Made by a program: the position numbers and the translations under genes
Shown: positions 39,499-43,982 of the stretch, one piece after another
How the letters are laid out: each line of letters starts with the position of its first letter
Numbering within the stretch: position 1 is the first letter of the stretch
Origin: a virus
DNA: 64,000 bases
Direction: 5' to 3' (one strand)
Virus record (IMG/VR): IMGVR_UViG_3300032236_001478
Span: 17,624 to 81,623 of that record
The notes under the pieces: generated by a model
Seen by the model: the letters and a program-made list of their open reading frames with translations, nothing else
Database searches by the model: none
What the model was told of the DNA's origin: nothing

Positions 39499-42351
39499 AT
39501 GGCAAATTCAAACAAAGTCTTCGTTTCTCCTGGTGTTTATACCTCAGAAACAGATTTAACTTTCGTGGCACAGAGTGTAGGTGTTACAACATTAGGTTTA
39601 GTTGGTGAGACTTTACAAGGTCCAGCATTTGAACCTGTGTTAATATCTGATTTTACTACCTTCAAAACATACTTTGGTGGTACTTCACCAATTGTTGACA
39701 TAAACGGATACCCAAAATATGGTCTACCGTATGTCGCAAAAGCATATTTACAAGAATCTAACCAATTATTCGTAACTCGTATTTTGGGATTAACTGGCTA
39801 CATGGCAGGTGTAACTTATGGTATTACTGCTTTAGGTGGTATGACTGTTGATTTAACATCATATGGTACTACAACTGGAACAGCAAATCCACATACTCAT
39901 GCTGCAATGACTGGTGGTACTTTTTATCATGAATTAACTGGATATACATCTGTAAATGGTAATTCATTTGCAGCATATATTGAAGCTCATTATAGTGGTA
40001 TTACAAATGCAGACAATGGTAAATGGTTTACAATAGGTGCAATTCCTAGTGGACACACTCCAGGCGGTACTCAATTAGTTTCTCCATTAACTGGAAGATT
40101 AGTTGACAATACAACAAATGGTAAAGAGTGGTATAATATTTTAACAAATGGTGTTGATGAAGTTTACACATATGTGTTTGTTTATAATAGTGGTGACACA
40201 TCATTCCACGTAACAAAATACACATTTGATGCTATGGTAAATCAAGATTACGATGGTAAAGTGGTGTGTTTATTGAGATCAAGAGGTCAATATCATAGAG
40301 AAAACTTAGTTTATCAAGTTACAGGTAATGAGGCAGTTTCTATTACAACACCTAACAATATGACAATAAACCCAAAAGCAGAATTTACAATTTCTGTAAC
40401 TCCTGATACTGGCGGAACAAAAACATATACTATTTCTTTGGATAATACTGATACAAAATATGTAACTAAAGTATTAGGTGTAGATCCATTTGATAAAGAA
40501 ATGGGTGCATATCCATTATACACTTACGAGGCGTATCCAAATTTAATTTCCCAATTATATTCAAAAGGTTTAATTAGAGGTTTAAATACAAATATTGTTT
40601 CTCAAGATGAGGGAACTGATTTTGTTGGACAATATCAACATCCAGTATCTCCAATGGTAGTTTCTGAAGTAAGAGGTGGTGTAGTTACAGATTTATTTAG
40701 TTTCATTGCAGTTTCTGATGGTGATGCCGGTAACTATATCAACAAAATCAGTATTGAAAATATTAACTTAAACACAGGTGAATTTGATGTACTTATTCGT
40801 AGTTTTAATGATAGTGACGATAACGTAGTTGCTGTTGAAACATACAAAAGATGTACAATGGACCCAACTGCTCCTGGTTTCATCGGTAAAAAAATAGGTA
40901 CTGCAGATGGTTTATATACATTGAATAGCAAATATGTAATGTTAGTTTTAGCTGATAATTTTGCTACAGACGCAATTCCTGCAGGATTTAAAGGATGTTA
41001 TACTAAAGATAATATTGGTGGTCTTGTTTATAAAACTGAGTATCACCAATCTGGTGATGTGGTATCTTACTTATCTGATGGTACACCAGTTATCACAAAT
41101 GGTGATAAAGTTAAAAGAACAAGCTTAGGTTTAAGTTCATCATCTCAAAGTGGTGCAAGTTATGATAATGACATGTTCAAATACAAAGGTGCTTCTTCTT
41201 TAAGTGGTGTTACTACTTTCGGTTTCCACCTTTCATCTAATGCATCTGGAATTGTTGATAATTCTGACAACGTTTTATTCAAAACAACTCCTTATGATTT
41301 AGAAGGTCAATCTGGAACATACAATCCATTAACAGCAACAACATATTGTAAATTTACAATGCCTATGTTTGGTGGTTTTGACGGTTGGGATATCTACAGA
41401 CAAACAAGAACAAATACTGATCAATACATTTTTGGTAAACCTGATTATACATCTGGAAATACTTTAAATGGTGGTGTATTCAGTACTACAATTCCTAACT
41501 CTGATTACTATTCTTTTTTACAAGGTATTCAAACATTTGCAAACCCAGAAGCAGTTAATATCAACGTATTTGCAACTCCAGGTATCGATTGGTCAAACAA
41601 TTTATCTTTAGTTACACAAGCAATTGATATGATTGAAAACGATAGAGCAGATTCACTTTATATTATTGATTCACCTAATGATACTGATGTTAATTCAATC
41701 ACTTCTTCATTCTATGATCAAGGAATTGATAGTAACTATTCAGCAACATACTGGCCTTGGATACAAATTTTAGATGCGGATAACGCAACTCAATTGTTCA
41801 TACCTCCAACAGGTGAAGTAGTTAAGAATATAGCATTAACAGATAACGTAGCTTATCCTTGGTTCGCAGTAGCGGGATATACAAGAGGTTTAGTTAAATC
41901 TATTAAGGCAGCTAAAAAATTAACATTAGACGATAGAGATAATTTATATAAAAATAGAATTAACCCTATTGCTACTTTCTCTGATACCGGAACTATTATT
42001 TGGGGTAACAAAACTCTTCAAATTAGAGAATCTGCGTTGGATAGAATTAATGTTAGAAGATTGTTACTAAGAGCAAGAAAATTAATTTCTGCTGTTGCAG
42101 TTAGATTGTTATTTGAACAAAATGATGATACTGTAAGACAAGAATTCTTAAGATTAGTAAATCCAATCTTAGATGCTATTAAAAAAGAAAGAGGTTTAAC
42201 AGATTTCCGTGTAACGGTATCTAGTGATCCTTCGGATATAGATAATAATTTGATGGTTGGTAAAATATTCATAAAACCAACTAGATCATTAGAATATATA
42301 GATCTGAATTTCGTAATAACTCCAACTGGAGCTTCATTCGAAAACGTATAA
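39499..42351 (+). CDS. Contractile tail sheath protein (gp18-like)
   Basis: FVSPGVYTSETD, GETLQGPAFEP, YSATYWPW, PWFAVAGYTRG, RINPI, WGNKTL, DRINVRRLL, LFEQND, IKPTRSLEYI. Confidence 0.97.
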   Translation: MANSNKVFVSPGVYTSETDLTFVAQSVGVTTLGLVGETLQGPAFEPVLISDFTTFKTYFGGTSPIVDINGYPKYGLPYVAKAYLQESNQLFVTRILGLTGYMAGVTYGITALGGMTVDLTSYGTTTGTANPHTHAAMTGGTFYHELTGYTSVNGNSFAAYIEAHYSGITNADNGKWFTIGAIPSGHTPGGTQLVSPLTGRLVDNTTNGKEWYNILTNGVDEVYTYVFVYNSGDTSFHVTKYTFDAMVNQDYDGKVVCLLRSRGQYHRENLVYQVTGNEAVSITTPNNMTINPKAEFTISVTPDTGGTKTYTISLDNTDTKYVTKVLGVDPFDKEMGAYPLYTYEAYPNLISQLYSKGLIRGLNTNIVSQDEGTDFVGQYQHPVSPMVVSEVRGGVVTDLFSFIAVSDGDAGNYINKISIENINLNTGEFDVLIRSFNDSDDNVVAVETYKRCTMDPTAPGFIGKKIGTADGLYTLNSKYVMLVLADNFATDAIPAGFKGCYTKDNIGGLVYKTEYHQSGDVVSYLSDGTPVITNGDKVKRTSLGLSSSSQSGASYDNDMFKYKGASSLSGVTTFGFHLSSNASGIVDNSDNVLFKTTPYDLEGQSGTYNPLTATTYCKFTMPMFGGFDGWDIYRQTRTNTDQYIFGKPDYTSGNTLNGGVFSTTIPNSDYYSFLQGIQTFANPEAVNINVFATPGIDWSNNLSLVTQAIDMIENDRADSLYIIDSPNDTDVNSITSSFYDQGIDSNYSATYWPWIQILDADNATQLFIPPTGEVVKNIALTDNVAYPWFAVAGYTRGLVKSIKAAKKLTLDDRDNLYKNRINPIATFSDTGTIIWGNKTLQIRESALDRINVRRLLLRARKLISAVAVRLLFEQNDDTVRQEFLRLVNPILDAIKKERGLTDFRVTVSSDPSDIDNNLMVGKIFIKPTRSLEYIDLNFVITPTGASFENV

Positions 42352-42369
42352 AATATAATAAAAACAATT

Positions 42370-42401
42370 AAGTGGGGGATAGGCATAGTATCCCCCATTT
42401 T
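42370..42401. terminator. Intrinsic terminator after sheath (usable in both directions)
   Basis: TGGGGGATA-ggcatag-TATCCCCCA followed by TTTT; A-rich on the left side. Confidence 0.85.
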
Positions 42402-42510
42402 AATTTTGCTGAGGTAAGGATATCGTAATTCCAATAATTTTTTTAGTATTTTTTATGATTATTTTATAAGAATTATTGGTTAAGAATAGAAAATAGTTTG
42501 AGGATATGCA

Positions 42511-42542
42511 AAAAGCTACGATTTTTTTTTGACAAAGTCAAA
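42511..42542 (-). promoter_or_regulatory. Orphan host-type promoter with overlapping palindrome
   Basis: TTTG-N20-TAGCTTTT on -. TTTGAC-AAA-GTCAAA inverted repeat at 42528-42542. Confidence 0.45.
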
Positions 42543-42622
42543 TTTCAACCCCAAATTAAAATATTTTAAATAACGATATATTTATCTAAAAGCAAATAAA
42601 CTAAAAACTAATATAGAAAAAA

Positions 42623-43111
42623 ATGGCTGATTTATTAATGAAAATGCCGGTTCCATACGAACCAAAACGTAAAAATAGGTTTATCTTAAGATTTGATTCA
42701 TCTTTAGGTATAAATGAGTGGTATGTTCAATCAACTGCTCGTCCTAGTGCTAAAATTGGTGTTACTCCAATACCATTCTTAAACACATCAACTTACGTTG
42801 CTGGTAGATTTGAGTGGAACACTATTAAAGTTACATTTAGAGATCCAATCGGTCCTTCAGCTGCTCAAGCTTTAATGGAATGGTTCCGTTTACACGCTGA
42901 ATCAGTTACAGGTAGAATGGGATATGCAGCAGGTTACAAAAAAGACGTTGAATTAGACATGTTAGATCCAACAGGTGTTGTGGTTGAAAAATGGATATTA
43001 CAACAATGTTTCTTAGAAGATGTTAACTTTGGTGAATTATCATATGACCAGGATGGTTTAGCGACTGTAGATGCTACTTTGAGAATGGATAGATGTATTT
43101 TAGTATACTAA
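42623..43111 (+). CDS. Tail tube protein (gp19-like)
   Basis: EPKRKNRF, YVAGRFEWNTIKVTFRD, AAGYKKD..L.MLDPTG.VVEKW. Late motif TATTTATC at 42579-86. Confidence 0.93.
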   Translation: MADLLMKMPVPYEPKRKNRFILRFDSSLGINEWYVQSTARPSAKIGVTPIPFLNTSTYVAGRFEWNTIKVTFRDPIGPSAAQALMEWFRLHAESVTGRMGYAAGYKKDVELDMLDPTGVVVEKWILQQCFLEDVNFGELSYDQDGLATVDATLRMDRCILVY

Positions 43112-43133
43112 TACACTTAACATATTGATTTAC

Positions 43134-43185
43134 AATCCATTATAATTATTGTTCCATGTGGAACGTAGTTATAATGGATTTTTTT
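43134..43185 (+). terminator. Long hairpin terminator after tail tube
   Basis: AATCCATTATAATTA...TAGTTATAATGGATT arms followed by a T-run. Confidence 0.8.
43150..43165. promoter_or_regulatory. parS-like ParB-binding palindrome
   Basis: TGTTCCATGTGGAACG, 14/16 identical to the chromosomal parS TGTTCCACGTGGAACA. Confidence 0.65.
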
Positions 43186-43229
43186 ATTTAAAACTTTACT
43201 TTACAATAGTTATTGTTTAAACTAGATAC

Positions 43230-43982
43230 ATGGATAATAACTTAAAAATAGACCCTTCAATCGCCTATGATGTGGTACAGTTACCTTCAGGCGGAATACA
43301 TTACACAAATAATAGAAAATCATTAAGAGTAGCGTATTTAACTGCTTCTGATGAAAATATTCTTTCTTCACCCAACTTATTACAATCGGATAGTGTTGTT
43401 GATGAACTATTAAAAAGAAAAATTTTAGATAGAGATTTCGATATTAATGATCTTGTTAATGATGATAGACAAGCAATATTGATTTTTTTAAGAAATACTG
43501 CATTTGGTTCAGATTATAAAATTACTATGACTGATCCAAAAACGAAAGAACCATTTGAAGCAACAATTGATTTATCCGTTATGAAAACAAGGGATTTAAC
43601 ATTAATTCCAGATGCAAATGGTGAATATGAATTTTATATGGAAGTATCAAAAGTTCCTGTCACTTTTAAATTTTTAAATAATAAACAAGAACAAGAATTA
43701 GAAAAAATACGAGCTTCCGCAACAGGAAATACCGTTGCACCAACAAATACAAAAAGACTGGAAATGATGATTAAAAGCGTAAACGGCGAAAGATCATTAA
43801 TGCCAATTTATAATTTCATACAAAATATGCCAATTAAAGATTCGCAAGACTTTAAAAGATTTGCAACAAAAAATAAGCCAGGATTAGATTTATTATATGA
43901 AGTTATTACCCCATCAGGAGAAAAAGTCCCAGTTTTAGTGGACTTTGGGGTTGACTTTTTTCGTCCTTTCTACGGAATATAA
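43230..43982 (+). CDS. Tail/baseplate-hub assembly chaperone (gp26-like)
   Basis: VQLPSGG..Y, YLTASDENIL, DRQAILIFLRNTAFG..Y, FIQNMPIKDS, PGLDL, ends DFFRPF. Between tube and tape measure. Confidence 0.8.
   Translation: MDNNLKIDPSIAYDVVQLPSGGIHYTNNRKSLRVAYLTASDENILSSPNLLQSDSVVDELLKRKILDRDFDINDLVNDDRQAILIFLRNTAFGSDYKITMTDPKTKEPFEATIDLSVMKTRDLTLIPDANGEYEFYMEVSKVPVTFKFLNNKQEQELEKIRASATGNTVAPTNTKRLEMMIKSVNGERSLMPIYNFIQNMPIKDSQDFKRFATKNKPGLDLLYEVITPSGEKVPVLVDFGVDFFRPFYGI

Follow-up and report, generated by a model that had tools for sequence, protein, structure and literature searches.

The window, a 64,000-nucleotide stretch of viral DNA, belongs to an IMG/VR record of 81.6 kb with an estimated completeness of about 26%. 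The region considered here runs from the tail sheath gene through the tail tube gene to a baseplate-hub-like gene and contains the following features:

39499..42351, plus strand: tail sheath gene, 950 aa (phrog_23, E = 6e-60)
42370..42400, plus strand: intrinsic terminator of the sheath gene, a terminator-like site; no parS-like site follows the window's copy
42623..43111, plus strand: tail tube gene, 162 aa (phrog_4542, E = 1.6e-26)
43118..43130, minus strand: match to the IHF core consensus, TAACATATTGATT, at chance level and excluded from the element
43134..43180, plus strand: terminator-like hairpin of the tube gene, 47 nt, followed by a T-run at 43181-43189
43150..43165, no strand: parS-like near-palindrome TGTTCCATGTGGAACG, 16 bp, conserved in relatives
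43190..43229, plus strand: conserved block (AAAACTTTACTTT ... TAGTTAT ... TAAAC) preceding the baseplate-hub-like gene
43230..43982, plus strand: baseplate-hub-like gene, 250 aa (phrog_150 baseplate hub, E = 1.5e-7)

Most related loci also have the conserved block of 43190..43229 after the tube terminator, and it is probably the promoter or leader of the baseplate-hub-like gene. A bS21 gene lies among the head genes of the record and is encoded on its reverse strand. No match was obtained when the region was compared with cultured phages by blastn, and a search of cultured phages with the sheath protein recovered distant relatives only, at less than 35% identity; no cultured model phage was identified. 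Phages encoding bS21 have predicted Bacteroidetes or Flavobacterium hosts, including one match to a Flavobacterium CRISPR spacer; no integrase was reported for them, pseudolysogeny was suggested, and the report does not mention parS, ParB, or centromeres (PMC9723584). Based on the bS21 gene, that report, and a relative found in a Flavobacteriaceae bin, the host of the window phage is predicted to belong to the Bacteroidota.

A parS-like palindrome downstream of the tail tube gene

The near-palindrome TGTTCCATGTGGAACG begins 39 nt past the stop codon of the tail tube ORF. It is identical to TGTTCCACGTGGAACA at 14 of 16 positions, with one mismatch in the core and one at a tolerated outer position. 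One of its half-sites is perfect (GTTCCAC, on the minus strand), and the other has a C-to-T change in the core. The window contains a single match to TGTTCCACGTGGAACA with two or fewer mismatches, compared to 0.01 expected. A first-pass annotation of this DNA had reported the 14/16 match at this place and put its probability by chance below about 1%; position and count were both correct, and the expected number of matches agrees with that estimate.

The 16-mer TGTTCCACGTGGAACA is the parS site of Pseudomonas aeruginosa (parS2/3) and Pseudomonas putida and, with a terminal G, the Myxococcus xanthus consensus (PMC4368675, PMC7022226), and the half-sites GTTCCAC and GTTTCAC are recognized by several ParB proteins (PMC4368675, PMC5098823, PMC7022226). 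We took this GG/CC spelling as the reference because it is the one used in Bacteroidota and Pseudomonas. The Bacillus-type consensus TGTTNCACGTGAAACA was rejected as a reference: TGTTCCATGTGGAACG differs from it at three positions, and seven such matches occur in the window where 3.0 are expected, which makes the window site a chance-level match. Compared to the chosen reference, the spelling is of the chromosomal type, at 14/16 in the window and up to 16/16 in relatives. The window copy does not have an intact CACGTG core. In P. aeruginosa, ParB affinity is affected by whether the core is intact, and sites with two mismatches bind more weakly (PMC4368675); reading CATGTG instead of CACGTG, the window copy is likely a weaker site, as judged from its spelling.

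Hairpin and IHF match

The palindrome forms the apex of the hairpin at 43134-43180, which has a minimum free energy of -23.5 kcal/mol (z = -5.6; 0 of 200 shuffled sequences fold as well) and is followed by TTTTT-A-TTT. Folding thus upheld the earlier description of the palindrome as the tip of a 47-nt hairpin that precedes a T-run. A stable hairpin with a T-run at a gene end and a conserved structure characterizes intrinsic terminators, and the predicted hairpin has each of these properties; it was absent from the list produced by a simple terminator scan of the window. Comparison of the window with three relatives (L002, L052, and L075) revealed compensatory changes at four pairs of the outer stem and an unchanged apex sequence. 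Covariation of the stem together with a fixed apex suggests that selection acts on the structure of the stem and on the sequence of the tip.

An exact IHF consensus had also been noted beside the hairpin, at 43118-43130. The match is exact, as TAACATATTGATT fits the core consensus WATCAANNNNTTR; the window contains 24 such matches compared to 13.2 expected, and a single match is therefore uninformative. We know of no established IHF consensus for Bacteroidota. A TTGAT(A/T)(A/T)(A/T)CAA-type inverted repeat lies just upstream of the parS-bearing hairpin in the window (43120-43133) and in L002, L007, L009, L013, L017, L052, and L075, and the left arm of the stem is often formed by the right half of this repeat. 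The putative IHF site TAACATATTGATT is part of this TTGAT..ATCAA-like block, which also precedes the hairpin in relatives.

Conservation and relocation of the site in related phages

A search of IMG/VR with the tube protein found 598 relatives, and the best 80 of these (79-86% protein identity) were analyzed together with the window, giving 81 rows and 437 kb of related loci. The 14-bp core GTTYCAYGTGRAAC occurs 52 times in the 437 kb with one or no mismatch, at most once per locus, whereas shuffled sequences give an expectation of 0.4. When two mismatches are allowed, 65 of the 81 rows have the core. The parS-like sites in the related loci are all intergenic. They lie upstream of the tube gene in 43 rows and downstream of it in 22; 16 rows have no site, and none has a site on both sides. 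The first-pass annotation had looked to the region downstream of the tube gene for conservation, and while the core is retained widely, it has this position in only 22 rows.

The 43 upstream sites are found 250-315 nt before the tube gene and 2-10 nt past the T-run of the sheath terminator. The 22 downstream sites are either inside the apex of the tube terminator (L002, L052, L075, and the window) or just after a separate tube terminator (L010, L016, L019, L032, L036, and others). A single site is therefore kept per locus although its position switches between the two sides of the tube gene. The refuting outcome named in the first-pass annotation was that orthologous terminators keep the hairpin and lose the core; the comparison turned out favorably for its reading, as relatives keep the GTTCCAYGTGRAAC core where the hairpin or terminator context differs or where the site has moved.

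The perfect sequence TGTTCCACGTGGAACA is present in at least three separate lineages (L023/24, L061/63/64/67/69/70, and L073), and the Bacillus-type sequence TGTTCCACGTGAAAC in L013, L017, L068, and L075. The use of TGTTCCACGTGAAAC or TGTTTCACGTGGAAC in other relatives corresponds to alternatives that are allowed within the known parS family; because the relatives vary between TGTTCCACGTGGAACA and TGTTCCACGTGAAAC, their variation stays inside that family. The flanks of the site are unalignable between lineages, and the parS motif is among the few conserved blocks when 14 sheath-tube spacers are aligned with MAFFT. The excess of matches (52 compared to 0.4), the two alternative intergenic positions, and the divergence of the flanks indicate that the site is conserved under selection in the related genomes. 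Per-position information content is circular for the 14 positions used in the search, and only the two outer positions were considered; outer position 1 is T in 36 of the 52 contexts.

Where phage sites depart from the perfect sequence, they do so most often by a central CpG-to-TpG transition, which converts CACGTG to CATGTG or CACATG. It is present in 15 of 52 distinct phage contexts, the remainder being mostly CACGTG, and has occurred in at least six lineages, usually as the sole mismatch in the 14-bp core. Its carriers include L006, L007, L010, L019, L032, L039, L044, L053, and the window. In the sites of Flavobacteriaceae hosts, this change is almost never present. Its recurrence suggests that the center of the site mutates readily without loss of function or, alternatively, that weaker sites are selected. 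Many of the related sites carry one or two mismatches, which could mean partial decay.

The 16 rows without a site, about one-fifth of the 81, include the nine that the tube tree places closest to the window. A search for a copy elsewhere in these lineages found none in their contigs, which cover 3-14% of the genome. The tube-gene tree groups the window with lineages that lack parS, yet the 3' region of its tube gene shows clear homology to its counterpart in the L002/L052/L075 clade, which suggests recombination where the tube gene ends or close by.

Other blocks are also conserved in the sheath-tube spacer. These are ACCCAGTAT followed by repeated CTGGAACTAG-like units, a AAAAACTACGAAAA ... 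TTGACAAAATCAAG block, and, just before the tube gene, ATATATTTATA, which is probably a late promoter. The window's spacer (42352-42622) contains the AAAAACTACGAAAA ... TTGACAAAATCAAG block and ATATATTTATA and lacks the ACCCAGTAT/CTGGAACTAG block.

Copy number and partition genes in whole phage records

Records of 89-288 kb contain one or two matches each, one of which is intergenic, and the large records have one intergenic copy per 200-290 kb. The extra matches, found in G001, G002, G004, and G005, are within ORFs and have core mismatches. We considered them as additional centromeres and rejected this assignment, as they are probably coding coincidences. In G005, a large relative, no exact copy of the site was found in the sequence searched. 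Another relative of the phage group, contig G245:C1, has 248,233 bp, the size of a whole phage genome, and belongs to a 1.7-Mb Flavobacteriaceae genome assembly; its tube gene (72315-72800) encodes a tube protein that is 81% identical. This contig has no parS-like site at one or no mismatch, and the usual host pair of sites is present on another contig (C36) of the same assembly. Since G005 and G245:C1 have no exact copy, the site is dispensable.

Neither a ParB_N domain (PF02195) above the cut-off nor a ParA-type ATPase (PF13614) was found in G000-G004, one of which is 92% complete and another, G000, about 26%. In the sequence covered, these records thus lack a canonical ParB and a ParA of their own. 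The first-pass annotation had stated that no parA or parB lies in the window, and this holds for the whole 81.6-kb record. Two records, G002 and G003, encode a ParB-like protein (phrog_12305, E = 6e-22) that scores only 13-15 bits against ParB_N:

L083 958-1713 (G002:220903-221655), minus strand; also in G003: ParB-like gene, 251 aa (phrog_12305)

This protein has a DGQHR-type motif, its best Pfam match is GmrSD_N (weak), and no sequence relative was found in the PDB. The gene was not found in G000, G001 (75% complete), G004, or G005, of which G001 and G004 have the site. The protein was therefore rejected as the general binder of the site, being confined to the sub-lineage of G002 and G003.

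Host parS sites, ParB, and SMC

Genomes from many bacterial phyla contain the exact 16-mer in clusters of two to five copies inside a few kilobases. The 14-bp core was found in 120 of 121 Flavobacteriaceae genomes; with few exceptions, these genomes of 2-5 Mb have two copies, separated by about 1.9 kb, and no others. The centromere of this family is thus laid out as two GTTCCACGTG(G/A)AAC sites. They flank mnmG/gidA, next to ybeY, as seen in Flavobacterium soli (L122 6848-6863) and Chitinophaga solisilvae (L152 2542-6181). We found no paper describing the two-site, mnmG-flanking arrangement in Flavobacteriaceae, and it is apparently undescribed.

ParB (TIGR00180) was detected in each of the five Bacteroidota genomes tested, all of them drafts in which parB and the parS sites are on different contigs; in F. 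soli, parA and parB form an operon. For the predicted host group only, then, a cognate ParB is available and the host parS has the same sequence as the phage site. The first-pass annotation had proposed that ParB bound to the phage recruits SMC. Searches of three Flavobacteriales genomes (G009, G010, and G011) for SMC (TIGR02168) and the SMC hinge (PF06470) found neither, and a control search of Bacteroides thetaiotaomicron likewise gave no match; both were found in Daejeonella and Chitinophaga (G012 and G013). SMC recruitment is therefore doubtful if the host is a member of the Flavobacteriales, and for this reason it is not part of the mechanism we favor, except in the case of a host from another class. 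In the bacteria that gave no SMC match, ParB may work without canonical SMC.

Discussion

We consider it fairly probable that the palindrome is a copy of the host parS that functions now or did so until recently, present as a single cis-acting site on a myophage of about 250-330 kb that encodes bS21 and infects freshwater Bacteroidota. The idea at the center of the first-pass annotation, a chromosomal-type parS on a phage without ParA or ParB, has stood up in that the core is kept in relatives and has the spelling of the host family; its SMC and IHF components have not, and the core of the window's own copy is weakened. Given the sequences, a phage group without ParA or a standard ParB probably borrows the ParB of its host. 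Host ParB dimers would recognize the phage site and, with CTP, would close into clamps that slide onto neighboring phage DNA and build a partition complex. Working on the nucleoid, host ParA might then position the phage genome, which is not integrated, or partition it. In this way a phage without an integrase might persist through host divisions in pseudolysogeny or a carrier state, or keep its replicating genomes apart. The sheath and tube genes are heavily transcribed, and a site that lies directly behind their strong terminators, or forms the tip of one, would be kept clear of read-through; a palindrome would suit the tip of a hairpin at no cost.

The main functional rival to centromere borrowing is a decoy role, in which the replicating copies of the phage site would soak up host ParB from the sites at mnmG and disturb chromosome segregation or ParA/DnaA control to the benefit of the phage. 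We regard this as unlikely. Because the host family has two parS sites per chromosome, tens to hundreds of phage copies would outnumber them, and both the late-region location and the lack of a phage ParA or ParB fit titration. However, a decoy should profit from many strong sites, whereas each genome keeps one that is often weakened, and the viability of ParB mutants in many bacteria (PMC7022226, Table 1) makes the pay-off doubtful. The site could instead be an operator or docking site for a phage-encoded protein, either a divergent ParB-like protein or an unrecognized HTH protein, that binds in the manner of KorB on OB, with the parS spelling shared by chance. The ParB-like protein of G002 and G003 and the other conserved regulatory blocks of the sheath-tube spacer speak for such a binder, yet that gene was not found in G000, G001 (which has the site and is 75% complete), G004, or G005, and its product has a DGQHR-type motif and a best Pfam match to GmrSD_N, not the features of a centromere-binding ParB. 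Moreover, the site is identical to the parS of the host family, down to the T/C and G/A alternatives, and is single-copy, not dispersed, and we judge a phage-encoded binder to be quite unlikely.

A role in RNA, as a plain terminator feature that stabilizes the tip or adds a small extra hairpin, with coincidental likeness to parS, would explain why every site adjoins a terminator and why, in the window and L002/L052/L075, the palindrome caps a terminator-like hairpin. Such a role predicts covariation, but it is the stems that covary while the spelling of the apex is fixed. In most relatives the site is past the T-run and so outside the terminator, variants such as GTGAAAC break pairing yet remain in the parS family, and an arbitrary 16-bp palindrome would equal the host parS with a chance of about 1 in 65,000. 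We thus find this explanation very improbable. The same weight falls on the view that the site serves no purpose at present, being either a decaying remnant of host DNA once captured or a match that arose by chance. Loss of the site from about one-fifth of lineages, its absence from the closest tube-gene relatives of the window, and the many copies with one or two mismatches are what a relic would leave. Against this stand the 52 matches compared to 0.4 expected, retention across lineages whose flanks cannot be aligned, and movement between two positions without duplication; in addition, most copies with the central CpG-to-TpG change have no other mismatch in the 14-bp core. We see very little likelihood in this explanation.

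The closest precedent for a borrowed host parS is phi29, which has five host-type parS sites and uses them through the host protein Spo0J (Meijer et al. 2005, summarized in PMC2731898). As described there, phi29 and Nf resemble the phages studied here in being classed as lytic, in lacking a ParB of their own, and in carrying parS sites of the host chromosomal type, and host ParB (Spo0J) moves their genome with the host segregation machinery in a non-lytic phase (PMC2731898). However, phi29 is a 19-kb podophage with five sites whose known role is entrapment in the Bacillus spore, in contrast to a myophage of about 250-330 kb of non-sporulating Bacteroidota with one site, which is placed at late-gene terminators. 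The combination of several parS sites with spore entrapment is thus not found in this group, which has one intergenic site per genome. To our knowledge, the predicted Bacteroidota hosts do not form endospores.

Chromosomal centromeres offer a second comparison. The 16-bp palindrome of P. aeruginosa parS1-4, P. putida, and M. xanthus is the same in relatives of the phage, and 14/16 in the window (PMC4368675, PMC5098823, PMC7022226). Chromosomal parS sites are clustered near oriC and are usually close to parAB (PMC4368675, PMC5098823, PMC7022226), whereas the phage site is far from replication and partition genes and its binder would come from another genome. A single parS site suffices in P. 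aeruginosa (PMC4368675, PMC7022226).

Mobile elements provide further parallels. In the ParAB-parS system of P1 and the SopAB-sopC system of N15, as proposed here, a ParA/ParB-type system acts on a cis site to maintain a phage genome that is not integrated while the cells divide. P1 and N15 encode their own ParA and ParB and have private sites; unlike them, the phage group described here encodes neither ParA nor a canonical ParB and uses the host spelling. The KorB-OB system of RK2 is similar in having palindromic sites of 14-17 bp of the ParB-HTH type on a mobile element. Elements of the KorB/ParB type have the cognate gene and many sites, compared to one site and no canonical ParB here.

The exact 16-bp palindrome is also present in at least 120 other IMG/VR contigs (L210-L329), mostly unrelated and of very different GC content; among the matches listed, only two of these contigs belong to this phage group. 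Also among the matches listed, the palindrome comes directly after a terminator T-run in L213, L249, L261, L241, and L299. It is just before a hairpin in L272, and a second parS lies 10 nt away in L265 and L296. The occurrence of the palindrome on unrelated contigs, often after terminators, hints that centromere borrowing may be common.

The principle that a phage can use a host-type parS is already known from phi29. A literature search found no paper on host-type parS sites on jumbo phages or phages of Bacteroidota, and the novelty lies in the host phylum, in the single site, in its placement beside late-gene terminators, and in a role for which spore entrapment is excluded. We tentatively suggest, as a possibility short of likely, that a widespread group of jumbo phages of freshwater Bacteroidota that lack an integrase persists as a stably inherited episome through a single host centromere plugged into the host ParABS system. 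Aquatic microbiologists often invoke pseudolysogeny or a carrier state for large "lytic" phages, and almost no mechanism for it is known beyond the spore entrapment of phi29. If these phages do persist as episomes, the pseudolysogeny of virulent-type phages would gain a concrete, testable molecular mechanism. A conserved host centromere on phages without an integrase, ParA, or canonical ParB offers a direct and cheap test of such a mechanism.
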